Positions 2,581-32,467 of a stretch of DNA of 64,000 nucleotides are shown piece by piece. The stretch is taken from sequence record PQ306573.1, one strand, 5' to 3'. Source of the stretch: Escherichia phage vB_EcoM_PTE-Eco05. Position 1 is the first letter of the stretch. Every line of letters begins with the position of its first letter. The position numbers were made by a program, and so were the translations under genes. The notes under the pieces were generated by a model. It made no database searches, had not been told where the DNA came from, and was given only the letters and a program-made list of their open reading frames with translations.

Positions 2581-5292
2581 ATGAAAGAATTTTACTTAAC
2601 GGTTGAACAGATTGGTGATTCAATTTTTGAACGTTACATCGATTCTAATGGCCGTGAACGTACTCGTGAAGTAGAATATAAACCATCACTGTTTGCTCAT
2701 TGTCCAGAAAGTCAGGCTACGAAATATTTCGATATCTACGGTAAGCCGTGTACTCGTAAGTTGTTCGCTAATATGCGTGCTGCCTCCCAATGGATTAAAC
2801 GCATGGAAGATATCGGACTTGAAGCACTTGGCATGGACGATTTCAAATTGGCGTATTTGACTGACACTTATAACTATGAAATCAAATACGACCATACAAA
2901 AATTCGTGTGGCTAACTTCGACATCGAAGTAACATCTCCGGACGGGTTCCCTGAGCCGTCACAAGCAAAACATCCGATTGATGCTATCACCCATTATGAC
3001 TCAATTGACGACAGGTTCTACGTATTTGATCTATTGAATTCTCCATATGGTAATGTAGAAGAATGGTCTATTGAAATCGCTGCTAAGCTTCAAGAACAAG
3101 GCGGTGATGAAGTTCCATCCGAAATTATCGATAAAATCATTTATATGCCGTTCGATAACGAAAAAGAATTGTTGATGGAATATCTCAACTTCTGGCAACA
3201 GAAAACTCCTGTCATTTTGACTGGATGGAACGTTGAGTCATTTGATATTCCATATGTGTATAACCGAATCAAGAATATTTTTGGCGAATCTACTGCGAAA
3301 CGTTTATCACCACATCGTAAAACTCGTGTTAAAGTTATCGAAAACATGTATGGTTCTCGTGAAATCATTACATTGTTCGGTATCTCTGTTCTTGATTACA
3401 TTGACCTTTACAAAAAATTCTCTTTTACCAATCAACCGTCGTATTCTCTGGATTACATTTCAGAATTTGAATTGAACGTCGGTAAACTGAAATACGACGG
3501 CCCTATTTCTAAGCTTCGTGAAAGCAATCACCAACGATATATTTCTTATAACATTATCGACGTGTATCGTGTATTGCAAATTGATGCTAAGCGTCAGTTC
3601 ATCAACTTGAGTTTGGACATGGGTTATTATGCTAAGATACAGATTCAATCTGTGTTTAGCCCAATTAAAACATGGGATGCTATTATCTTTAATAGCCTTA
3701 AAGAGCAGAACAAGGTGATTCCACAAGGTCGTTCTCACCCGGTTCAACCTTATCCTGGCGCTTTTGTTAAGGAACCTATTCCAAATCGATACAAATATGT
3801 AATGAGTTTCGACCTTACATCTCTGTATCCAAGTATTATTCGCCAAGTGAATATTAGCCCGGAAACAATAGCAGGAACGTTTAAAGTAGCTCCACTGCAT
3901 GATTATATTAACGCAATCGCTGAACGTCCTTCAGATGTGTACAGTTGTTCTCCTAACGGCATGATGTATTATAAAGACCGTGATGGTGTAGTTCCAACTG
4001 AAATCACTAAGGTCTTTAATCAACGTAAAGAACATAAAGGTTACATGCTTGCAGCTCAACGTAATGGTGAAATAATTAAAGAGGCCTTACATAATCCTAA
4101 TCTTTCTGTTGACGAACCATTAGATGTTGATTATCGTTTCGACTTCAGTGATGAGATTAAAGAAAAGATTAAAAAGTTGTCTGCTAAATCTCTTAATGAA
4201 ATGTTGTTTAGAGCTCAACGTACTGAAGTTGCAGGTATGACTGCACAGATTAACCGTAAATTGCTCATCAACTCACTTTATGGTGCACTCGGCAACGTTT
4301 GGTTCCGTTATTACGATTTGCGTAATGCTACTGCAATCACAACATTTGGTCAAATGGCTTTACAGTGGATTGAACGTAAAGTTAATGAATATCTGAATGA
4401 AGTTTGTGGTACAGAAGGTGAAGCTTTCGTTCTTTATGGTGATACAGACTCTATTTACGTATCTGCTGATAAAATTATCGATAAGGTTGGTGAATCTAAA
4501 TTCCGTGATACCAACCATTGGGTAGACTTCTTAGATAAGTTTGCACGTGAACGTATGGAACCAGCTATTGATAGAGGTTTCCGTGAAATGTGTGAATACA
4601 TGAACAATAAACAACACTTAATGTTCATGGACCGAGAAGCTATCGCTGGGCCTCCGCTTGGTTCTAAAGGTATTGGCGGATTTTGGACTGGTAAGAAACG
4701 TTATGCATTAAACGTGTGGGATATGGAAGGTACTCGTTACGCTGAGCCTAAACTCAAAATCATGGGTCTAGAGACTCAGAAATCTTCGACTCCTAAAGCA
4801 GTACAGAAAGCTCTTAAAGAATGTATTCGTCGTATGCTTCAAGAAGGTGAAGAATCATTACAAGAATATTTTAAAGAGTTTGAAAAAGAATTCCGTCAAT
4901 TGAATTATATTAGCATCGCGTCGGTATCTTCTGCGAATAACATTGCTAAATACGACGTAGGTGGATTCCCGGGTCCTAAATGCCCGTTCCATATTCGTGG
5001 AATTCTGACGTATAACCGAGCTATCAAAGGTAATATTGATGCACCACAAGTTGTAGAAGGTGAAAAAGTATATGTTCTGCCTTTACGTGAAGGAAACCCA
5101 TTCGGTGATAAATGTATCGCATGGCCTTCTGGTACTGAAATCACAGATTTAATTAAAGACGATGTACTTCATTGGATGGACTACACTGTTCTCCTTGAGA
5201 AGACATTTATTAAACCGCTTGAAGGATTCACATCAGCAGCTAAACTCGATTACGAGAAGAAAGCATCTCTGTTCGATATGTTTGATTTTTGA
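2581..5292 (+). CDS. 43: DNA polymerase gp43 (family B, with 3'-5' exonuclease)
   Basis: 903 aa; exo motif FDIEV, polymerase motifs SLYPSII and YGDTDS. Confidence 0.95.
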   Translation: MKEFYLTVEQIGDSIFERYIDSNGRERTREVEYKPSLFAHCPESQATKYFDIYGKPCTRKLFANMRAASQWIKRMEDIGLEALGMDDFKLAYLTDTYNYEIKYDHTKIRVANFDIEVTSPDGFPEPSQAKHPIDAITHYDSIDDRFYVFDLLNSPYGNVEEWSIEIAAKLQEQGGDEVPSEIIDKIIYMPFDNEKELLMEYLNFWQQKTPVILTGWNVESFDIPYVYNRIKNIFGESTAKRLSPHRKTRVKVIENMYGSREIITLFGISVLDYIDLYKKFSFTNQPSYSLDYISEFELNVGKLKYDGPISKLRESNHQRYISYNIIDVYRVLQIDAKRQFINLSLDMGYYAKIQIQSVFSPIKTWDAIIFNSLKEQNKVIPQGRSHPVQPYPGAFVKEPIPNRYKYVMSFDLTSLYPSIIRQVNISPETIAGTFKVAPLHDYINAIAERPSDVYSCSPNGMMYYKDRDGVVPTEITKVFNQRKEHKGYMLAAQRNGEIIKEALHNPNLSVDEPLDVDYRFDFSDEIKEKIKKLSAKSLNEMLFRAQRTEVAGMTAQINRKLLINSLYGALGNVWFRYYDLRNATAITTFGQMALQWIERKVNEYLNEVCGTEGEAFVLYGDTDSIYVSADKIIDKVGESKFRDTNHWVDFLDKFARERMEPAIDRGFREMCEYMNNKQHLMFMDREAIAGPPLGSKGIGGFWTGKKRYALNVWDMEGTRYAEPKLKIMGLETQKSSTPKAVQKALKECIRRMLQEGEESLQEYFKEFEKEFRQLNYISIASVSSANNIAKYDVGGFPGPKCPFHIRGILTYNRAIKGNIDAPQVVEGEKVYVLPLREGNPFGDKCIAWPSGTEITDLIKDDVLHWMDYTVLLEKTFIKPLEGFTSAAKLDYEKKASLFDMFDF

Positions 5293-5332: not shown

Positions 5333-5968
5333 ATGAAAACTACACCAATCACTATCGCTATTGACGCAATCGTAAAACAAGCTTCATCTCTTGCCACTAT
5401 GGCTAAAGTAATTAGTCAAAACCCTGCTCGGTATAATGCTATTCTTGAAACTCTTCGTCGCCCTGGACTGAGTAATTATGAAAGTCGTGTAATTATTACA
5501 GGTGTTGGTAAGAACGCTAATATCGCAACTAAAGCTTCCGAGACTTTTGCTTCACTAGGTATTCCTAGCATGTATTTGAACACTGGGCATTATTCTCATG
5601 GTGACGCAGGATTTATTGCACCTAATGATGTATTAGTTCACATCAGCCGTTCTGGTAAGACTGAAGAAATGATAGGTGTTGCTAAACATCTTCGTATGAT
5701 TCGTCCTCAGGTTAAACAGATTCTGTTACATTGTAACCCTGACATTCCACAAGAATACGAAGCTCTTTTTGATTATACGTTCTGTACTGGTATCGCGGTA
5801 GAAGTTGACGAGAACTCTTTAGCTCCGACAATGTCTACTACATTGTTGTTAGCGCTTATCGATACGTTCGCTATCAACCTTTCGTCTGAACGTGGATTTA
5901 CCTCTAATGATTTCCTTAAGTTCCATCCAGGCGGTGCACTAGGTGCCATGTTACGAGGCGAACAATGA
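5333..5968 (+). CDS. SIS-domain sugar-phosphate isomerase (KpsF/GutQ arabinose-5-phosphate isomerase-like)
   Basis: 211 aa; SIS-type Rossmann pattern (VIITGVGKN, HISRSGKTEE) and C-terminal HPGGALG typical of KpsF/GutQ-type isomerases. Confidence 0.7.
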   Translation: MKTTPITIAIDAIVKQASSLATMAKVISQNPARYNAILETLRRPGLSNYESRVIITGVGKNANIATKASETFASLGIPSMYLNTGHYSHGDAGFIAPNDVLVHISRSGKTEEMIGVAKHLRMIRPQVKQILLHCNPDIPQEYEALFDYTFCTGIAVEVDENSLAPTMSTTLLLALIDTFAINLSSERGFTSNDFLKFHPGGALGAMLRGEQ

Positions 5969-6108
5969 AAGCAATATCAATAGGACTTTTACTATTGATG
6001 CTTGTCATGACTATCTACTGGAGCTTAACGGCTCCAGTAATGATTCCAACACTTGTAATTGGATGGATTATGATTGGACTACAAGCAAAGTATGAATGCT
6101 TTAACTAG
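5965..6108 (+). CDS. Small hydrophobic membrane protein (47 aa, two predicted TM segments)
   Basis: ATG overlaps upstream stop (ATGA); highly hydrophobic MKAISIGLLLLMLVMTIYW...; below the 60-aa cutoff of the ORF track. Confidence 0.35.
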   Translation: MKAISIGLLLLMLVMTIYWSLTAPVMIPTLVIGWIMIGLQAKYECFN

Positions 6109-6149
6109 AATAGTGTACAATACTCCTACTTACCAATGAGGACTTCAAC

Positions 6150-7835
6150 ATGAAAAAAGCTGTTATTCTTGGTGCTGGACTGGCAACTCGTTTGTATCCA
6201 ATAACGCATCATATTCCTAAGGTGCTTGTTAACTATAAACAAGACACTATTCTGAGCAATTTGTATACAATTTATTCTGACCTTGGCGCAGATGAAATTA
6301 TTGTAGTAGTTCATTCAAAATTTGCTGAAACTGTTCGAGCTTATTGTGAGCAAGAAGGGTTCAATGTGACTATTCGTACAGTTGATGAAGCGTATGGTTC
6401 TGCTTATGCTCTTGCTAAATTACACAAAGATTTAGACGGCCATAATGTAATTGTTAACTGGTGTGATATTATTCCCGATTTTGGTTCATGGTCTTGGAAT
6501 GTTAACGCAATCTATGTTAAGGGTGATGAATGTCGGTATAATTTCGATGGTGAAAATATCACTAATGTAGGTGAAACAGGCGGTAATGTTGTAGGAATTT
6601 ATCAGTTCAAAGACTGGGAATTCTATATGGGTTCTACCGATGAGGAAATTCATGAATACTGCAAAGGACGTGATTTCGTAGAATTCCTTTACGGCAGCAC
6701 ATTCAATAAATCAGAGCTTATGAATCTAATTGATTTAGGTGATATGCCTAAACTTGAAAAGGCCCATGAAGTTCGTGAACTGAACCGTAGTTTTAATGCA
6801 GTTGAAATTGGCGAAGAAACTGTAACTAAATTCGCATTAACCGAACAGGGTCGAGCTCTTCAGAAAGATGAGATTTCGTGGTATTTGAAAGTGAAATCAG
6901 ATTCAGTTCCTCAGTTAGTTTCTGTTAATGAAAATAACTTTGAAATGGAACGCATTAAAGGTAAGCCGGCATTTGAATATATTAAATCAAAATCAAGTCT
7001 TGCTCGTCCACAAATTATTGATGCAATTTTAGATGCACTGAAATTCAGCACAGACACTTATTTTGTAAGTCCTGAAACTGTTCGTCGTGATTTCACTAAA
7101 GAATTCTATACGAAAGTTATTGATCGTTGTGAAAGCATTCAACCATTGATTGATTCATTTGGTAAAATCACACATGTGAACTACACTAAGATTGGACGTC
7201 TGAAGCCAATGCTGAAACAAGCTTTAGAACACCTTATTCGTTATCATAACCGTTCTCAGGGACAGTACTCTGTTATTCATGGTGACCCGAACTTCAGTAA
7301 TACTATGATTACTGATAACGGCGAAGTCAAGTTTATCGACCCTCGTGGATATTTTGGCGAAACCAAGATTTACGGGCCAAAATTGTATGATGAAGCTAAA
7401 GTGCTTTACGCTGTTTCAGGTTATGATGAATTCAATGCTAATCCGACCTGGGGACAGTTTACTATTGATGAAACAACTTGTAATGTGACTATTAACATCA
7501 ATCCATTAGTTTACAAATATGGAAAGATGAGTTCGTTTAACGAGTATCATCATTTGGCAGTGGCAATTATCTGGATTGCATTAGGTGGTTATTTCAAGAA
7601 TAATCCACTTAAAGCGGTAGCCGCATATTATAAAGGTATGGAACTTCTGACTAAGCAATTACGTAATATGGGCCGTGTACTTCAAGACGGCTCTATTAGT
7701 TATGACGTAGCAGAACCTGTAACGGCTACTCTGATTACAAAAAATCCTGGTAAATGGGTACTAACTGATAAAGAAACTGGTGTTTCCTATCGTCCAATCG
7801 GTGGCGATATCACTCATCAATGGGAACGAATCTAA
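6150..7835 (+). CDS. Bifunctional sugar-1-phosphate nucleotidyltransferase (N-terminal) / APH-choline-kinase-fold sugar kinase (C-terminal)
   Basis: 561 aa; N-terminal MKKAVILGAGLATRLYPIT..PK.LV nucleotidyltransferase signature; C-terminal HGDPNFSNTMI...FIDPRGYFG kinase catalytic loop (Brenner HGD..N plus D). Confidence 0.7.
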   Translation: MKKAVILGAGLATRLYPITHHIPKVLVNYKQDTILSNLYTIYSDLGADEIIVVVHSKFAETVRAYCEQEGFNVTIRTVDEAYGSAYALAKLHKDLDGHNVIVNWCDIIPDFGSWSWNVNAIYVKGDECRYNFDGENITNVGETGGNVVGIYQFKDWEFYMGSTDEEIHEYCKGRDFVEFLYGSTFNKSELMNLIDLGDMPKLEKAHEVRELNRSFNAVEIGEETVTKFALTEQGRALQKDEISWYLKVKSDSVPQLVSVNENNFEMERIKGKPAFEYIKSKSSLARPQIIDAILDALKFSTDTYFVSPETVRRDFTKEFYTKVIDRCESIQPLIDSFGKITHVNYTKIGRLKPMLKQALEHLIRYHNRSQGQYSVIHGDPNFSNTMITDNGEVKFIDPRGYFGETKIYGPKLYDEAKVLYAVSGYDEFNANPTWGQFTIDETTCNVTININPLVYKYGKMSSFNEYHHLAVAIIWIALGGYFKNNPLKAVAAYYKGMELLTKQLRNMGRVLQDGSISYDVAEPVTATLITKNPGKWVLTDKETGVSYRPIGGDITHQWERI

Positions 7836-8221
7836 TGCACCGTGTAGAAAACATGCTTAATCTTTGTTTTGATGTCGATGATTGTATAACAGAGTGGAAT
7901 AACAATCGTGATTACGTGAACTTCAAACCAGACGTCGAAATGGTGTCTGCCATTAATGCTCTGTATGATGCAGGGCATACCATAACGCTTTACACTGCTC
8001 GCGGTATGAAGTCAGTAGGTCCTGGTCGTATAGCAATTGACATTCTCCCAAGTCTGATTCAGAACTTGGCAAACATTGGCTTGAAGTACCATAATTTGCT
8101 AACACATAAACCAGTATATGATTGGATTATCGACGACAAAGCTATGCGTCCTGACGAATTCAAAGCTCTTATGAATAAAGGCGAATTCGAAACATTTAAA
8201 TCGTATAAACCGAATCTATAA
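7820..8221 (+). CDS. HAD-superfamily phosphatase (KdsC-like small sugar-phosphate phosphatase)
   Basis: N-terminal FDVDDCIT (DxDx[TV] motif I of HAD enzymes); start may instead be the ATG at 7835 overlapping the upstream stop (TAATG). Confidence 0.6.
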   Translation: MGTNLMHRVENMLNLCFDVDDCITEWNNNRDYVNFKPDVEMVSAINALYDAGHTITLYTARGMKSVGPGRIAIDILPSLIQNLANIGLKYHNLLTHKPVYDWIIDDKAMRPDEFKALMNKGEFETFKSYKPNL

Positions 8222-8269
8222 TAATTTAAGTAAGACCTGCAAAAAAACCATCGCATCAATTAACGCGAG

Positions 8270-9439
8270 ATGCAAAAAATGAATACTTTTAAAATCGGAA
8301 CGAATTTTGATTTAGCTCTTCTTGATAAAATCGTAGAGCTCAATAAAACTTATCCTAATAGCTTGATAAATGAAGTATACGGCTCTACAAGAGAAATGGC
8401 TTTTGTAGCAGCCAGACCTGATTTTAGGCTTCCTGACGTTGACAAAAAGATGTTAGAAGATTACGTTAAACGTTGTAACGAATTAGGTATTTGCTTTAAC
8501 TATACACTCAACACGATAAATCCTGGTTCAAAAAGAGAACTAGTTGAGTGGAAGAAGAAAGCTATTCAGGATTATGTTCAGTATCTTTGGTCAATAGGCG
8601 TATGGCGTATTACTATCGCTAACCCTGTTGTTATGGAAATTGTTCGTGAAGTCAATAAAGACATTGAGATTGAAGTTTCAACAATTCTACATGTCGATGC
8701 TGTAACTCAAATCAAATACTTGCATGACCAGTATAATATCAAAAAGGTCTGCTGTGGAATTCATAAGAACCGTTCAGTTTCTTTCCTGAAGCGTGCAGCA
8801 GAGTTTTGCAATAAGAACAATATAATATTTGAAGTTCTTGTAAATGAGTTCTGTTCTAATGCTGGTAAAGGGTATACAACACATTGTAGCTATCGTGACT
8901 CTTGCTATATTTTCCATAGTACTGATGTTACAGCTGATGATGCTAAATCCTTAAACGGATATCCTATGCAGCACTGTATTAAAGCTCGTGATACAGACCC
9001 ATTTAACTGGTTGAGAACTCGTTTTGTTCGTCCTCAAGATTTGAAACTTTATAATGATATTGGTATCACTCAATTCAAAGTTTCAGGACGTACAGGTAGC
9101 ACAGACTACATTTTGAAAGTTCTTGAAGCATACGCTTCTGAAAAGTTTGAAGGTAATTTGTTAGAACTGTGGAAGCCTTTAGAGACTATTTTCACTCTTG
9201 AAAACGAAACTGAGTTTTCACATACAGTAAATATTGAAACCTCTTTGTTAGATGGCTTTTTAGAAAAAAGGTGGTTCAGACATCCAGATTTCGATTGTGC
9301 TAATGAAATCTGCGGGACGACGTGTACATATTGTGAAAGATATTATAAACGTCAATTATCTAAAAACGGGTTAGCAGAAAACTCTATATCTATTATTGAT
9401 ATAACTAACTCTGATGACGCTTTGAGGTACCCGGAATGA
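8270..9439 (+). CDS. Cys-rich protein, possibly a TIM-barrel Fe-S enzyme (U32-peptidase-family-like); function unknown
   Basis: 389 aa; alternating beta/alpha-like N-terminal pattern, conserved Cys clusters (EFCSNAGKGYTTHCSYRDSC; CANEICGTTCTYCERYY); family assignment tentative. Confidence 0.5.
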   Translation: MQKMNTFKIGTNFDLALLDKIVELNKTYPNSLINEVYGSTREMAFVAARPDFRLPDVDKKMLEDYVKRCNELGICFNYTLNTINPGSKRELVEWKKKAIQDYVQYLWSIGVWRITIANPVVMEIVREVNKDIEIEVSTILHVDAVTQIKYLHDQYNIKKVCCGIHKNRSVSFLKRAAEFCNKNNIIFEVLVNEFCSNAGKGYTTHCSYRDSCYIFHSTDVTADDAKSLNGYPMQHCIKARDTDPFNWLRTRFVRPQDLKLYNDIGITQFKVSGRTGSTDYILKVLEAYASEKFEGNLLELWKPLETIFTLENETEFSHTVNIETSLLDGFLEKRWFRHPDFDCANEICGTTCTYCERYYKRQLSKNGLAENSISIIDITNSDDALRYPE

Positions 9440-9675
9440 TTTCTAGAAAAACTTTTAACCACCAACTTAATGAAGAGATTTTGACTATGAAACTGAACAC
9501 TAACGAACAAATTCTTAAAAGGGCCCTGATGGGCCTGTTTGAAACTAAAGCGGCTAAAGTGATTAAAGAACCTGTTCAATTGGAATACTACGCTGATGCA
9601 TTTCTTCATAGTGTTCTTGGAAGTATCGGTGCTGAAGCTTTACGTTATATCAACATTGTCAAGAAATTCAAATAA
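9436..9675 (+). CDS. Hypothetical protein (79 aa)
   Basis: ATG overlaps upstream stop (ATGA); in-operon position. Confidence 0.45.
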   Translation: MISRKTFNHQLNEEILTMKLNTNEQILKRALMGLFETKAAKVIKEPVQLEYYADAFLHSVLGSIGAEALRYINIVKKFK

Positions 9676-9717: not shown

Positions 9718-10434
9718 ATGGGAAAACATAACACAATGAAATATATCAAAGCCGCAGATTTTCAAGCCGCATTTAAAGCAGTCAATCGTGAAATTTTAGA
9801 AAACCCGGAATTCGTAACTGATTCTCGTATTGGACGTTGTAATGAAATTGGGTCTATGACAGTAGTTGTTGACACTCCATCATCATTCAAAATGACCGAC
9901 CCACGTATTAACCGCATCTCTTATGAATATGCCGAAGACTTCTGGAAGTTTATGATTTCTGGTGGTACCAACGCAGAAGAAGCGTTTAAGGCATATCCTA
10001 ATGTCGCTAAATTTATTTCTAAACCAAAATCAGATGTTTTGCCGGCGAACTTCAACACTTTCTATGGTCCTCGCATTGCGGCCCAATTACCAGCTCTTCT
10101 AAAAGAACTTAAAGAGAAGCCTAACTCTCGAAGAGTTGTGTTCCAAATTCTAGAAAGTTCTGATCAGGCTTTGCTTGATTCAGACGAAACGCTTGAATAT
10201 CCATGTACTGACTCAGTGACTTATTATATCCGTGATGGTAAGCTTTATACCCACTGTCATATGCGTTCTCAGAACTGCGCTGTTGTTATGCAGTTGGATT
10301 TTTATCTCCAAGGAAAATTACTTCATTATATCGCTAACGAATGCGGTGTAGAAGTTGGTGATTATACTCATACCATGGTAAGTGCCCATGTGTTTGAACG
10401 TGATTTTGATTATGTTAAAGGATTCCTTGACTAA
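9718..10434 (+). CDS. 42: dCMP hydroxymethylase-like enzyme (thymidylate synthase superfamily), gp42 position
   Basis: 238 aa; TS-fold catalytic region YPCTDSVTYYIRDGKLYTHCHMRSQN (active-site Cys, RSxD-like); located between gene 43 block and uvsX as T4 gene 42. Confidence 0.7.
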   Translation: MGKHNTMKYIKAADFQAAFKAVNREILENPEFVTDSRIGRCNEIGSMTVVVDTPSSFKMTDPRINRISYEYAEDFWKFMISGGTNAEEAFKAYPNVAKFISKPKSDVLPANFNTFYGPRIAAQLPALLKELKEKPNSRRVVFQILESSDQALLDSDETLEYPCTDSVTYYIRDGKLYTHCHMRSQNCAVVMQLDFYLQGKLLHYIANECGVEVGDYTHTMVSAHVFERDFDYVKGFLD

Positions 10435-11333
10435 TGGCTATTTTCCGCGTACCAATCTTGAGTATGCGGTCTTATGAAACTGGACAGTATGCTATCCTTA
10501 AGGATGGCAACTTCCAACTTCATTTGCACCGTGCTAATCCGGGTGATGTGATTACATATCCACGTAATGCATCTGATATTAAAGAATGCGAACGTCTTTT
10601 TCCAGAATTTAAGTTTGTTCCATTATGGTATAAAGATAACGCGTATAACACTCGTAAATATTTCTGGTCTGAAAATGAATTTGTGGTTGATTCATTAATT
10701 GCTTATTATGATTGTGATTTTCTAATCACAGATATCACTGGATATGACGGCGCTTTTGATGTGGAATTCAATTTCAATATCACTGCAGACCCTAATAAAC
10801 CACGTTTTTATATTGACGAATTCTTAAAAACTGATATGTTGTCGGTTAATCGTTCACTTCAAACTACTGTGTTGAATGAACGTCAAAAAGAAGTGCTGGT
10901 TAACGCAGGTGCAGATGGTAATAAGATTATCGTAACGCAGAAAGTTATACGTCCTTCCATCATGCAGCGTCTTGTAGGTGATTTGGCTCCTATTTATCTA
11001 GATGGTATTTTTCATCCATTTCGAATTAGTGACCCGTGCTATCGTTTTGAACAAGTGGTTGAATGTGCAATTCAATTAGGCCAACCGCTTTATATAACCG
11101 ATCCAAATAATAGCTTCGACAGAAATAAGTATCCTGAAGAAGCGCTGATTCGAATTTTTAAACCAACTAAAACAGAGTACTATCAAATTCTTAAAGGGCG
11201 TCCTAAAATTCAATATTTCGAAAATCCTGAAGAAGTATTCCATCCAGGTCTTGGTGAGTTCATCTACTTTAATGCTTTAATTTCTTCGCCGTATAATATA
11301 CCTAAATATGAAGATGTCGTAATCGAGGAATAA
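10434..11333 (+). CDS. Hypothetical protein occupying the T4 beta-glucosyltransferase slot; candidate DNA-modification enzyme
   Basis: 299 aa; start overlaps gene 42 stop; no similarity to T4 beta-gt that I recognise. Confidence 0.55.
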   Translation: MAIFRVPILSMRSYETGQYAILKDGNFQLHLHRANPGDVITYPRNASDIKECERLFPEFKFVPLWYKDNAYNTRKYFWSENEFVVDSLIAYYDCDFLITDITGYDGAFDVEFNFNITADPNKPRFYIDEFLKTDMLSVNRSLQTTVLNERQKEVLVNAGADGNKIIVTQKVIRPSIMQRLVGDLAPIYLDGIFHPFRISDPCYRFEQVVECAIQLGQPLYITDPNNSFDRNKYPEEALIRIFKPTKTEYYQILKGRPKIQYFENPEEVFHPGLGEFIYFNALISSPYNIPKYEDVVIEE

Positions 11334-11334
11334 A

Positions 11335-11883
11335 ATGGCTAAAATTATTTTAGTAGATGGCCCAGATAATGCTGGTAAAACAACTTTCATTAATGACATA
11401 ATGGAAATTAGTGAAAGATATGTAAAGATTGATTTCCCTAAACGAACAGTTGATGGGCGTTTCGATGTTAAGTCTCGAAATGAAGTTGGCTGCTTCGAAA
11501 CGATGTTGAATTATTTAGACCCTACTAAGATTTATCTGTTAGACCGTGGATATATTAGTAACTGGGTTTATGGACGTATTCGACAAGATGCGGACTCGGT
11601 TCTTGACGTTTATGAACAGGATTATGTTCGTCTTTGCCAAAACCATGATGTGTTCACAATTATTTTAACACGTAACGAAATGACTGAAAGTTTTGAAGAC
11701 GACCTTATTACTTTGTCCTCATTCGGTTTTAATACAGTCATTTCACATTTTGAAGAGTTTGCAATTCATAACAAAATCCAAACGTATCAATTACTTAATC
11801 ATGATGGTGCTAACAAAGTTATAGGATTTAATGCAAGCGAACGTAATTATTTGATTACAGAAATTATCAAATGGGCTCGTTAA
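11335..11883 (+). CDS. P-loop kinase, thymidylate-kinase/dNMP-kinase-like
   Basis: 182 aa; Walker A GPDNAGKTT and a DRGY motif resembling the TMK DRY motif. Confidence 0.55.
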   Translation: MAKIILVDGPDNAGKTTFINDIMEISERYVKIDFPKRTVDGRFDVKSRNEVGCFETMLNYLDPTKIYLLDRGYISNWVYGRIRQDADSVLDVYEQDYVRLCQNHDVFTIILTRNEMTESFEDDLITLSSFGFNTVISHFEEFAIHNKIQTYQLLNHDGANKVIGFNASERNYLITEIIKWAR

Positions 11884-16774: not shown

Positions 16775-17068
16775 ATGAAAAAGTTATCATTGGCAGCAAT
16801 CTTACTTGCAGTATCATGTGCACCGGCTCCAGTTACGGCAGGTTATGATAAAGACCTCTGTGAGTGGTCAATGACTGCAAATCAAGAAGATGTTGAACAA
16901 CAAATCTTCTCTGATATCATGAACATCACTAAACGAGACCGTCCTAATATGGTTAATAAAGTTGTTGAACAACTTAAGTCTGGCGGTATCATGCAGTACA
17001 ACTATGTTTTGTATTGTGACCCTAATTTCGATAACAAAGATATCGTAACCGAAATCACAGGTGAATAA
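16775..17068 (+). CDS. sp: Secreted periplasmic protein, Spackle (sp)-like superinfection exclusion factor
   Basis: 97 aa with cleavable signal peptide (MKKLSLAAILLAVSCAPAPVTA); size and position between 41 and 61 match T4 sp; identity from memory, not verified. Confidence 0.55.
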   Translation: MKKLSLAAILLAVSCAPAPVTAGYDKDLCEWSMTANQEDVEQQIFSDIMNITKRDRPNMVNKVVEQLKSGGIMQYNYVLYCDPNFDNKDIVTEITGE

Positions 17069-17069
17069 T

Positions 17070-17720
17070 ATGATTTATTACATGCACAAAAACGCACCAT
17101 TTAAATATGGTAAATTTCCTAATGCACAATGTTATAATATAACGCCGAATGAAAATAATAACGGATACCATATTGGTGTAATTTTTGTAATTGTTAAAGA
17201 TAACGAAATTGTTGCCTGGGCAGATTTTAAAGGTACAACATATGATGTTAATCCTGTGCCTTTCACATATTACAATATAATGGATTTGGCATATGATTAT
17301 AATTGGTTTAATCATGACACGTTGGCTCATATTGAAGGTGTAGGATTTGACATCTCTTATTCTAGCTATTCATTATGTCCTATGAGCCGAGCTCACGGTA
17401 AAGATGTATCATATCTTTCAATTCGGAAACGTGTAAACTTCAAACGCAGTACAGAGTATGTTGGTGGACTCTTTGTTAAAGATAATAAAATAACCCGTAT
17501 TAGTTATCCTTTAAGTGTAGGTCAAAAAGATGTTGATGTTGATTTAGACTTAACTGAAAGTAACATTAATCGTATTGCTTCTGTATATTTTGATATCGAT
17601 GAAAAAATTGTAGTGTGTGGATACGAATTACCACCTGAAGAAAAGGCTGAAACAATTGAAGTCGAATTAGAAATTTCTGTTGATGACCAAATATTTAATG
17701 CATTTATGAATCGAGGTTAA
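17070..17720 (+). CDS. Hypothetical protein (216 aa)
   Basis: Track ORF starts at a GTG at 17061; ATG at 17070 follows aggtga RBS. Confidence 0.5.
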   Translation: MIYYMHKNAPFKYGKFPNAQCYNITPNENNNGYHIGVIFVIVKDNEIVAWADFKGTTYDVNPVPFTYYNIMDLAYDYNWFNHDTLAHIEGVGFDISYSSYSLCPMSRAHGKDVSYLSIRKRVNFKRSTEYVGGLFVKDNKITRISYPLSVGQKDVDVDLDLTESNINRIASVYFDIDEKIVVCGYELPPEEKAETIEVELEISVDDQIFNAFMNRG

Positions 17721-19662: not shown

Positions 19663-19751
19663 AATATCTCCTTAGTTACCTATTATTTATTACGCTTTAT
19701 AAAATTAATGTTAGAATTAAACTCTCTTATACTGAATTGAAAGGAAAAATA

Positions 19752-20273
19752 ATGGCGCACTTTAACGAATGTTCACAACTTATTTCTGGTGTTGATAAAG
19801 CAGAAGAAGCTTATTTTAATGCTCTGATTCACGAAGATAAAGACCCACTGCAGGTAATGCTTGATATGCAGAAATCTTTACAGGTTCGTCTGGCAAATGA
19901 CAAGCCTGAACATAACAAACATCCTGATGAATTAGCTACCGCCGGTGATGTTGTTGATTGGCTGCGTAATCAGAAAGATTATATTGATGATGAATTCCGT
20001 GAACTGCTGACTTCACTTGGCGGTATGAGCAATGGTGAAAAAGCTGCCAGCAGTGTATGGAAGCCATGGAAAGCACAACATGCTGAATATCGTAATCGTC
20101 GTATCGATGAACTGTCTCCTGAAGACCAGCTCGAAATTAAATTCGAAATGATTGATATTCTGCACTTCGTTCTGAACATGTTCCAAGGTCTGGGTCTTTC
20201 TGCTGAAGAAATCTTTAAACTGTATTACCTGAAAAACCAACACAACTTTGAACGCCAGGATAATGGTTACTGA
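19752..20273 (+). CDS. 56: dCTP pyrophosphatase gp56 (MazG-like)
   Basis: Track ORF 19737..20273 trimmed to ATG after aaggaaaaata; 173 aa; helical MazG-like sequence; T4-syntenic position. Confidence 0.75.
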   Translation: MAHFNECSQLISGVDKAEEAYFNALIHEDKDPLQVMLDMQKSLQVRLANDKPEHNKHPDELATAGDVVDWLRNQKDYIDDEFRELLTSLGGMSNGEKAASSVWKPWKAQHAEYRNRRIDELSPEDQLEIKFEMIDILHFVLNMFQGLGLSAEEIFKLYYLKNQHNFERQDNGY

Positions 20274-31366: not shown

Positions 31367-32467
31367 ATGAAAGTTATGTTTATCCCATCTCGCGCAGTCC
31401 CATTTAACCCAGAACGTGTACAAGGTGGTCTTGAAGCAGTACATTTAAATGTGTTGAAATATTTAGTTTCTATCGGTGCCGATATTGATTATATTGGTTT
31501 TGATAATGACACGTTTGGTGACTGGAAAGTTAATCATCATCCTGTTGGTCATCTGACTAAATTCAGTCTAGGTATGAGTTATACTATGGCTCGTAAGATT
31601 GTTGAACTAGCCGGCATTAATGAGTACGATTTCGTTGTTACAATGGAACCGACCAAACTAACCGTTCAGGCAATTAAAGACGCAGGTCTCTCTAAAGTTC
31701 ATAAGAATTTTATGGCAACACCATTTGAACCAGTATCTCGTGGCATTGTTCAAATTTGGGACCAGACTATTCAAATTCGTAAGAACGGTGGTAAGAGTTA
31801 TGCTCCTACTAAAGCCTTCCGTGAATTTGAACGCAAATATTGTTATATGACTTCAGGTCTGACTGACAAAATTGATTATGATTATTGGCGAGCAAATCCG
31901 TTGTTTGAAACCGAAGATTATCCGGTTATTTGTTTGAATGAGAAACCTGAAGTTCTTCCGGCGACTGATCTGATTATTAGTGCACAACGTTATGACACTA
32001 AAATGCGTCGTACTGATGTTGCTCTTGAAGCGATTAAAGCACTAGGCGAAAATGGTGTAGGATACTGTCCTAGTAAATGGGCACCACCGGCTAAGTATCC
32101 TGTTATTATTGATGCTCCACACAGTGAAATCATGGAACGTCTTAAAACAGCTAAAGCACTTATCAATACGTGTCCTGACACGGGTACGGTAGAGAATAGT
32201 TCTATTGAAGCCATCTCTAAAGGTGTCCCTGTGATTCAGTTAGTTTTTAAGGATTATCCGCACGCGACATTCGAATACGACCCAGATACTGTGCGTGTAG
32301 AAATTGATTCCTCTACTCCTAAGAAAGAAGTAGTTGCGCTTTACACAAAAGCTGTATTAGAATTCACTGACACATACGAAGCTCGAGTTAAACGTGCTGA
32401 AGCCGTATGGAAGAAGTATAACCGAGATGCAGTTGTTGCGATGTGGGATAAAATCTTCACAGCGTAA
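31367..32467 (+). CDS. GT-B fold glycosyltransferase (GT4/GT5-like); candidate DNA sugar transferase
   Basis: 366 aa; N-terminus MKVMFIPSRAVPFNPERVQGGLEAV resembles the xGGL donor-binding start of GT4/GT5 enzymes; C-terminal TGTVENSSIEAISKGVPVI resembles the E-x7-E/PVI motif. Confidence 0.6.
   Translation: MKVMFIPSRAVPFNPERVQGGLEAVHLNVLKYLVSIGADIDYIGFDNDTFGDWKVNHHPVGHLTKFSLGMSYTMARKIVELAGINEYDFVVTMEPTKLTVQAIKDAGLSKVHKNFMATPFEPVSRGIVQIWDQTIQIRKNGGKSYAPTKAFREFERKYCYMTSGLTDKIDYDYWRANPLFETEDYPVICLNEKPEVLPATDLIISAQRYDTKMRRTDVALEAIKALGENGVGYCPSKWAPPAKYPVIIDAPHSEIMERLKTAKALINTCPDTGTVENSSIEAISKGVPVIQLVFKDYPHATFEYDPDTVRVEIDSSTPKKEVVALYTKAVLEFTDTYEARVKRAEAVWKKYNRDAVVAMWDKIFTA

Follow-up and report, generated by a model that had tools for sequence, protein, structure and literature searches.

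We analysed a 64,000-nucleotide stretch of DNA from Escherichia phage vB_EcoM_PTE-Eco05 (sequence record PQ306573.1; hereafter the window), focusing on the block at positions 5333–9675, which lies between the DNA polymerase gene and the gene of a thymidylate-synthase (ThyA) homolog. The explanation that accounts jointly for the whole system, and in which we place high confidence, is that this block forms the sugar-donor half of an arabinosyl-5-hydroxycytosine hypermodification pathway. The block also encodes a cysteine-rich protein of the Peptidase-U32 family (hereafter U32), a candidate prephenate-dependent anaerobic hydroxylase. The sugar-donor module is already known, having been proposed in 2018 and characterised in 2025–2026, and its reading from the raw sequence alone is a rediscovery of a system worked out between 2018 and 2026. 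For the U32 protein taken by itself, comparative genomics makes us lean, by a modest preference, towards an iron–sulfur (Fe-S), prephenate-dependent and oxygen-independent C5-hydroxylase that would provide 5-hydroxycytosine when O2 is lacking, and away from a sugar enzyme. That the members of the viral U32 clade hydroxylate pyrimidines at C5, on dCMP or DNA, in a prephenate-dependent and O2-independent manner, and that this is both true and new, we propose tentatively, with slightly more doubt than belief.

A donor module shared with RB69-like phages

By sequence comparison, the source genome is an RB69-like Mosigvirus and the block is another member of the system known from this genus. The open reading frames (ORFs) of the block all lie on the + strand, co-directional and tightly packed, and its base composition is uniform with that of the flanks. 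The block matches 195 phage records, nearly all of them Mosigviruses, with Shigella phage JK45 as the best whole-block match (99.1%); since it is kept at a coverage of at least 80% in 157 records, the arrangement is not a chance one. Gene order and content are the same as in the Mosigvirus system of RB69, HY126, Bas46 and Bas47 (RB69 gp45–gp55 and gp3; the Afh genes of HY126). The module proteins are 98–100% identical to those of Bas46, a BASEL phage whose record labels the module genes as 'involved in UDP-arabinose biosynthesis'. AfhE is 96%, AfhF 100%, and the isomerase and the ThyA homolog each 98% identical to their counterparts in HY126, a phage whose AfhE and AfhF have been studied biochemically (He et al. 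2026, as cited in PMC13326640), so that activities shown by others can be transferred to the proteins studied here. In the RB69 reference record, the genes for the nucleotidyltransferase/kinase and for a glycosyltransferase are each split by a sequencing error, whereas both are intact here (561 and 299 residues).

The chemistry of this system has been described in several steps. Arabinose was found on RB69 DNA by Thomas et al. 2018 (PMC6024577), who proposed ORF055c and ORF53_52c, located in a non-T4 module between the polymerase and UvsX genes, as the source of UDP-arabinose. Lee et al. 2026 (PMC13326640) showed that the arabinose in RB69 is ether-linked to 5-hydroxycytosine. Nuclear magnetic resonance (NMR) and mass spectrometry (MS) place the sugar on this base (PMC13326640, PMC13390438), making the earlier assignment to 5-hydroxymethylcytosine erroneous. 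Replacement of cytosine by mono- or di-arabinosyl-5-hydroxycytosine in virion DNA has been shown for RB69 and Mosigvirus NP. The hydroxylated precursor comes from RB69 gp48, which makes 5-hydroxy-dCMP with oxygen from O2, as seen by 18O2 incorporation, and binds flavin (Lee et al. 2026, PMC13326640).

Applied to the window, these findings suggest the following mechanism. The isomerase would divert ribulose-5-phosphate to arabinose-5-phosphate, the kinase domain of the AfhE-type protein would convert this into arabinose-1,5-bisphosphate, the AfhF-type phosphatase would then strip the 5-phosphate to leave arabinose-1-phosphate, and the nucleotidyltransferase domain of the AfhE-type protein would produce UDP-arabinofuranose. 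This is the order given in those passages of PMC13326640 that cite the HY126 work. Because the kinase acts first and the phosphatase removes the 5-phosphate afterwards, no free-sugar intermediate would occur. In the other half of the pathway, the ThyA homolog would hydroxylate dCMP at C5 with flavin and O2, kinases would raise 5-hydroxy-dCMP to the triphosphate, and the polymerase would incorporate it. Two glycosyltransferases (Table 1) would finally put one or two arabinoses on the 5-hydroxyl group in DNA, protecting it from restriction. When O2 is lacking, the U32 protein, as an Fe-S and prephenate-dependent C5-hydroxylase, would give the same 5-hydroxycytosine.

The system follows the logic of the T4 glucosyl-hydroxymethylcytosine system (gp42, alpha- and beta-glucosyltransferases, host UDP-glucose), in which a modified dCMP is likewise made by a thymidylate-synthase homolog, incorporated, and glycosylated on the DNA; the T4 genes also occupy the same neighbourhood, between genes 43 and uvsX. 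The two differ in chemistry. The T4 base is 5-hydroxymethylcytosine, made via methylene-tetrahydrofolate, whereas the base here would be 5-hydroxycytosine, made via flavin and O2, and the sugar is glucose in T4 but arabinofuranose, from a phage-made donor, in the system described here. Enterobacteria have no nucleoside diphosphate (NDP)-arabinose, so a phage of this kind has to produce the donor itself.

The U32 protein as a candidate C5-hydroxylase

The initial annotation had noted a Cys-rich enzyme in the block and counted it in the sugar-nucleotide module. The protein is there, and it belongs to Pfam Peptidase_U32 (PF01136, 42.2 bits against a cutoff of 22.4), but its genomic partners point to base hydroxylation and away from a sugar-pathway role. 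As described in the literature, the characterised U32 proteins RlhA, TrhP and UbiU/UbiV carry out prephenate-dependent, O2-independent hydroxylation. RlhA forms 5-hydroxycytidine in 23S rRNA (ho5C2501), TrhP forms 5-hydroxyuridine in tRNA (ho5U34) in parallel to the O2-dependent TrhO, and UbiU/UbiV hydroxylate ubiquinone precursors anaerobically, with prephenate as the oxygen donor. The phage protein shares with these enzymes the Pfam domain, the TIM-barrel fold and the cysteine that corresponds to UbiU C176, as well as a genomic association with the supply of prephenate, and the product chemistry of RlhA, a C5-hydroxylated cytosine, is that proposed for the phage protein. It differs from them in sequence (17–21% identity), in an extra C-terminal Cx4Cx3Cx2C motif, in belonging to a clade that is viral only, and in its presumed substrate, a deoxynucleotide or DNA. 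By profile comparison, its nearest relative in E. coli is RlhA (E 2e-5, 201 columns).

Nine cysteines are fully conserved in 121 U32 homologs down to 47% identity: C161, C195, C206, C212, C236 and the four of the C-terminal motif. In an alignment with E. coli UbiU, UbiV, RlhA and TrhP, C212 is invariant and corresponds to UbiU C176, the mutation of which abolishes function according to the literature, while C195 is nearly invariant. An AF2 model built with 27 homologs reached a pLDDT of 88.9. Foldseek against the PDB returned 5d88, the uncharacterised U32 protein Mk0906, as the top hit (E 2.8e-7, TM(target) 0.71), followed only by generic TIM barrels, so that the structure adds no functional detail; a sequence search against PDB chains gave nothing at E≤1. 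Across Tevenvirinae genera, no other protein of the module is as conserved as U32: identity to the window proteins is 83–85% for U32, 75–83% for DNA polymerase, 74–82% for the 5-hydroxy-dCMP synthase and 52–72% for AfhE. All 221 U32 matches in GenBank phages are at least 80% identical.

The genomic company of U32 is informative. In 54 phage records, which span most non-Mosigvirus genera and about 13 host genera, a gene beside U32 or close to it encodes an AroQ chorismate mutase, verified with Pfam. The hosts include Klebsiella, Serratia, Yersinia, Enterobacter, Proteus, Erwinia, Edwardsiella, Providencia, Pectobacterium, Morganella, Kosakonia and Shewanella, and the same pairing is found in E. 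coli phage EcS1. Outside Mosigviruses the usual gene order is isomerase, AfhE, AfhF, U32, (79-residue ORF), chorismate mutase, hydroxylase, glycosyltransferase and kinase. U32 is absent from all 57 phages of Acinetobacter, a strict aerobe, that carry the AfhE gene.

Uncultured viral contigs, up to 466 kb in length, carry more distant U32 homologs (37–58% identity), in every case inside clusters of replication or nucleotide-metabolism genes. After dereplication of these loci to 34 clusters, a glycosyltransferase resembling RB69 gp46:47 was found near U32 in 24, usually directly upstream; 11 clusters have an AfhE homolog nearby and nine an isomerase. In seven of the 34, U32 directly adjoins a gene for DAHP synthase and/or chorismate mutase; according to Pfam, fused DAHP-synthase/chorismate-mutase proteins adjoin U32 in three contigs, and chorismate mutase directly follows it in a jumbo-phage group. 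A ThyA-family gene lies within 10 kb of U32 in 15 of 15 Straboviridae (T4-like) loci but in just one of 42 distant loci, and the sole distant ThyA-family neighbour looks like an ordinary ThyA.

Since U32 keeps company with a DNA glycosyltransferase and with prephenate genes in independent lineages, also where a ThyA-type enzyme is missing, a C5-hydroxylase is the simplest reading. In Mosigviruses, the pair of U32 and the flavin enzyme would parallel the prephenate-dependent TrhP and O2-dependent TrhO routes to 5-hydroxyuridine in E. coli. In many uncultured, often jumbo, phages without the ThyA-type enzyme, U32 would be the sole hydroxylase feeding the gp46:47-like glycosyltransferase, and in some of them the phage's own DAHP synthase and chorismate mutase would supply the oxygen donor.

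For the sugar-donor part of the system there is essentially no contrary evidence. Several observations weigh against the hydroxylase assignment of U32. Mosigviruses have no chorismate mutase, its slot being held by the 79-residue ORF alone; in E. coli, prephenate comes from PheA and TyrA according to the literature. Of the four Fe-S cysteines that are canonical in U32 proteins, only two (C195 and C212) align, and clade-specific cysteines take the place of the other two. The distant phages could have ThyA homologs farther than 10 kb from U32. Dhakaviruses, which infect E. coli, have the module yet lack U32, and the link of U32 to facultatively anaerobic as opposed to aerobic hosts is confounded by phage phylogeny. 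RB69 gp50, the counterpart of U32, is listed in PMC13326640 as a 'sugar or heterocycle reductase', without discussion. The text of that paper makes no mention of U32, chorismate, prephenate or Fe-S, and the literature that we searched contained no link of U32 or chorismate mutase to DNA arabinosylation; He et al. 2026 and Mahler et al. 2025, which may address such a link, lay outside this search.

The Acinetobacter phages and Dhakaviruses without U32 indicate that it is accessory to the minimal pathway, and the Dhakaviruses that it is dispensable at least aerobically. We considered whether the presence of U32 strictly marks facultatively anaerobic hosts; this is only partly supported, as the Dhakaviruses of E. 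coli lack it. One of these, Escherichia phage WG01 (locus L014, 5062–10151), keeps Imm after the polymerase and has AfhE, AfhF, the kinase, the ThyA homolog and the glycosyltransferase, but neither a phage isomerase nor U32; it presumably relies on host KdsD/GutQ for arabinose-5-phosphate.

The best-surviving alternative, which we nevertheless regard as unlikely, makes U32 a tailoring enzyme of the sugar branch, such as a sugar or heterocycle reductase or another redox enzyme acting on the arabinose nucleotide. This would suit its label in Table 1 of PMC13326640, its position among the sugar genes and its co-occurrence with AfhE and the isomerase in some distant phages. However, the three-enzyme route to UDP-arabinofuranose, as given in the passages of PMC13326640 citing the HY126 work, is complete without U32, and the Acinetobacter and Dhakavirus phages have arabinosylation modules that lack it. 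The distant phages also pair U32 more often with the glycosyltransferase (24/34) than with AfhE (11/34), and its specific partners, chorismate mutase and DAHP synthase, suit a prephenate-dependent hydroxylase and not a sugar reductase. It is likewise improbable that U32 hydroxylates host or phage tRNA or rRNA in the manner of TrhP or RlhA and merely hitch-hikes beside DNA-modification genes. Although its nearest characterised relatives do work on RNA, RlhA and TrhP have long C-terminal extensions that are missing from the viral clade, and in unrelated phage lineages the U32 gene is tied to DNA modification: in such unrelated phage lineages its gene shows conserved, translationally coupled linkage to genes for DNA glycosyltransferase, NDP-sugar synthesis, dCMP deaminase, nucleotide kinase and DNA polymerase.

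If U32 is a C5-hydroxylase, it would bear on a paradox of this system: the published hydroxylase needs O2, while coliphages live in the gut. An O2-independent, prephenate-using DNA-base hydroxylase would resolve it, and a second, anaerobic route to 5-hydroxycytosine would explain how Mosigviruses can replicate in the anoxic gut. The phage protein would then be the first member of the U32 family to act on DNA precursors, and it would offer an accessible soluble system for studying a family in which direct hydroxylase activity, according to the literature, awaits in vitro demonstration. Many uncultured phages would also be flagged as likely carriers of glycosylated 5-hydroxypyrimidines. The question is relevant to phage therapy and Mosigvirus engineering because the modification status under anoxia would affect sensitivity to restriction and CRISPR.

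Some distant loci showed further features. A DAHP_synth_1 neighbour of U32 in contig L006 was considered as a Kdo8P synthase, an enzyme that would use arabinose-5-phosphate; this was rejected, as DAHP synthase models scored 216–237 bits against 63 for Kdo8P synthase. A radical-SAM (SPASM) gene lies about 1 kb upstream of the glycosyltransferase–U32 pair in several contigs (L016, 7980–9011; L017, 7972–9000; L064; L005, 1–249). On a 61-kb viral contig (L015, 7777–16179), U32 is flanked by gp46:47-like and TAGT-like glycosyltransferases, a Gly_transf_sug protein, a dUTPase/DCD protein and a UDP-galactopyranose mutase, a neighbourhood that suggests hexofuranose-type DNA glycosylation on a hydroxyl group that U32 would make.

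Donor enzymes and acceptor base

The initial annotation had read the block as making an NDP-pentose donor from ribulose-5-phosphate via arabinose-5-phosphate, which matches the RB69/HY126/Bas46 system to which its proteins are so close (96–100% identity to HY126). It had also preferred glycosylation of DNA with a sugar other than glucose to a role in the cell envelope, in agreement with the published arabinosylation of RB69, HY126 and Bas46. The three enzymes that it had named, a SIS-domain isomerase, a nucleotidyltransferase/kinase fusion and a HAD phosphatase, are borne out by profile matches, motifs and identity to HY126 proteins. The isomerase matches Pfam SIS (39 bits against a cutoff of 25), TIGR00393 KpsF/GutQ (110 bits) and PHROG 5670 'arabinose 5-phosphate isomerase' (E 2e-116). 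It has a SIS catalytic domain homologous to that of KdsD/GutQ, with the same proposed reaction. Those enzymes have about 325 residues and tandem C-terminal CBS domains, whereas the phage protein has 211 residues and no CBS domain; it covers positions 47–202 of the 328 in the KdsD equivalog model and scores 105 bits, below the cutoff of 505. It resembles single-domain isomerases such as PDB 3etn (cited in PMC13326640).

In the AfhE-type protein, Pfam NTP_transferase covers residues 3–99, and NCBIfam nucleotidyltransferase models match as well; residues 308–409 give weak matches to Pfam kinase families. The protein carries the motif GAGLATRL and, in its C-terminal region, the Brenner-type motif HGDPNFSN. 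From these features, the C-terminal APH/choline-kinase-like domain is predicted to phosphorylate arabinose-5-phosphate at C1 and the N-terminal domain to make UDP-arabinofuranose. The phosphatase protein had no match in a Pfam search but matched TIGR01689, a capsule-biosynthesis phosphatase subfamily of the HAD superfamily (E 4e-13), and contains the motifs DVDDC and DD. An alternative start at 7835 would give a protein of 128 residues, and 128 of 128 residues are identical to HY126 AfhF. In Erwinia phage Virsaitis27 (L002, 5352–5990) and Yersinia phage phiR1-RT (L012, 2707–3345), a gene for a Seg-like homing endonuclease separates the phosphatase gene from that of U32; this insertion is absent from the window.

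Further claims of the same annotation have to be corrected. It had taken the neighbouring ThyA homolog for a dCMP hydroxymethylase; by orthology (98% identity to the HY126 enzyme; counterpart of RB69 gp48), this protein is predicted to be a 5-hydroxy-dCMP synthase instead. The acceptor that it had named, hydroxymethylcytosine, gives way to ether-linked 5-hydroxycytosine (PMC13326640, PMC13390438), and its order of phosphatase before kinase, through a free sugar, is reversed in the HY126 work, as far as this is cited in PMC13326640, where the kinase comes first and arabinose-1,5-bisphosphate is the intermediate. A pathway that supplies an NDP-pentose for hydroxymethylcytosine glycosylation by way of isomerase, phosphatase, kinase and nucleotidyltransferase is therefore very improbable: the NMR and MS data put arabinose on 5-hydroxycytosine, gp48 incorporates 18O2 and its HY126 homolog is 98% identical to the enzyme here, and the cited biochemistry gives the bisphosphate route. 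The domain content would fit such a pathway, arabinosyl-hydroxymethylcytosine was what Thomas et al. 2018 (PMC6024577) originally reported, and Table 1 of PMC13326640 still gives the free-arabinose order of steps as the putative function. Hardly tenable is the view that the phage carries the genes for the isomerase, the nucleotidyltransferase and the phosphatase as auxiliary metabolic genes serving synthesis of the host envelope (Kdo, lipopolysaccharide or capsule), as the GenBank labels 'GlmU', 'phosphoheptose isomerase' and 'capsule biosynthesis protein' and the top model of the HAD protein would have it. Those labels were transferred from families whose models are matched only below threshold, the orthologous enzymes produce UDP-arabinofuranose, phage DNA is where the sugar occurs, and the genes are embedded in a replication and nucleotide-metabolism cluster beside DNA glycosyltransferases.

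Genes of the arabinosyl-5-hydroxycytosine pathway also lie outside the block (Table 1). The predicted dCTPase would, by analogy with RB69p028 (PMC13326640), supply dCMP and keep dCTP out of the pool. The second arabinosyltransferase is 98.4% identical to RB69p003 over 366 residues.

Table 1. Genes and ORFs of the block, its flanks and the predicted pathway, with positions in the window
Feature	Positions	Strand	Basis or remark
DNA polymerase	2581–5292	+	RB69-type protein; 5' flank of the module
SIS-only D-arabinose-5-phosphate isomerase, 211 residues, RB69 gp55 counterpart (predicted)	5333–5968	+	SIS, TIGR00393, PHROG 5670
47-residue hydrophobic membrane peptide MKAISIGLLLLMLVMTIYWSLTAPVMIPTLVIGWIMIGLQAKYECFN	5965–6108	+	Conserved position
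Bifunctional AfhE-type nucleotidyltransferase/kinase, 561 residues, RB69 gp52:53 counterpart (predicted)	6150–7835	+	Profiles, motifs, HY126 identity
AfhF-type HAD-superfamily phosphatase, 133 residues, RB69 gp51 counterpart (predicted)	7820–8221	+	TIGR01689, motifs, HY126 identity
Peptidase-U32-family Cys-rich protein, 389 residues, RB69 gp50 counterpart	8270–9439	+	Pfam PF01136
79-residue ORF, RB69ORF049c family, PHROG 8601	9436–9675	+	Translationally coupled to U32
ThyA homolog, putative flavin/O2-dependent 5-hydroxy-dCMP synthase, RB69 gp48 counterpart	9718–10434	+	Pfam Thymidylat_synt; 98% to HY126
DNA arabinosyltransferase 1, 299 residues, intact, RB69 gp46:47 counterpart (predicted)	10434–11333	+	99% to HY126 and Bas46; assignment from PMC13326640
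Thymidylate-kinase-like nucleotide kinase, RB69 gp45 counterpart (predicted)	11335–11883	+	PHROG 761; PMC13326640 Table 1
dCTPase, gp56-like, dUTPase_2 family (predicted)	19737–20273	+	Pfam dUTPase_2, 29 bits
DNA arabinosyltransferase 2, RB69 ORF003c/gp3 homolog (predicted)	31367–32467	+	Between topoisomerase gene 39 and rIIA

Small reading frames and neighbouring features

Two small ORFs of the block accompany the enzymes. The ATG of the 47-residue peptide overlaps the stop codon of the isomerase gene. A coding sequence stands at the same position in Bas46, HY126 and Virsaitis27, and apparently in phiR1-RT too; the program-made ORF list gives a GTG ORF in a different frame (5943–6095) in its place. 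The family of the 79-residue ORF occupies the slot that chorismate mutase has in other genera, or lies just upstream of chorismate mutase. We considered this ORF as a diverged chorismate mutase and rejected the idea, as it had no Pfam match at E≤10, a BLASTP E of 0.18 and a probability of 0.3% in hhalign against the phage chorismate mutase family. The motif INHxLNE at its N-terminus is also found in the N-terminal extension of the 114-residue chorismate mutase protein of Winklervirus. The ORF is full length here but cut to about 40 residues in HY126 (L003, 6161–6283); in PHB12 and DCP548 only residues 1–47 are covered, and in several other Mosigviruses it is matched in two pieces, probably through frameshifts. 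Such sequences suggest that it may be decaying within the genus.

A scan of the region for promoters and terminators showed no excess over shuffles. The intergenic segment 9676–9717, upstream of the gene for the putative 5-hydroxy-dCMP synthase, reads AAGCTTTACGAATTGAGTATATAAT; its MotA-box-like GCTTTA about 12 nt upstream of TATAAT is what we take to be reminiscent of a T4 middle promoter, and a generic sigma-70 scan did not list this segment as a promoter. Elsewhere in the window, a Pfam match to AdfA (anti-DarT factor A; 396 bits) at 17061–17720 on the + strand marks a counter-defence gene unrelated to the module.

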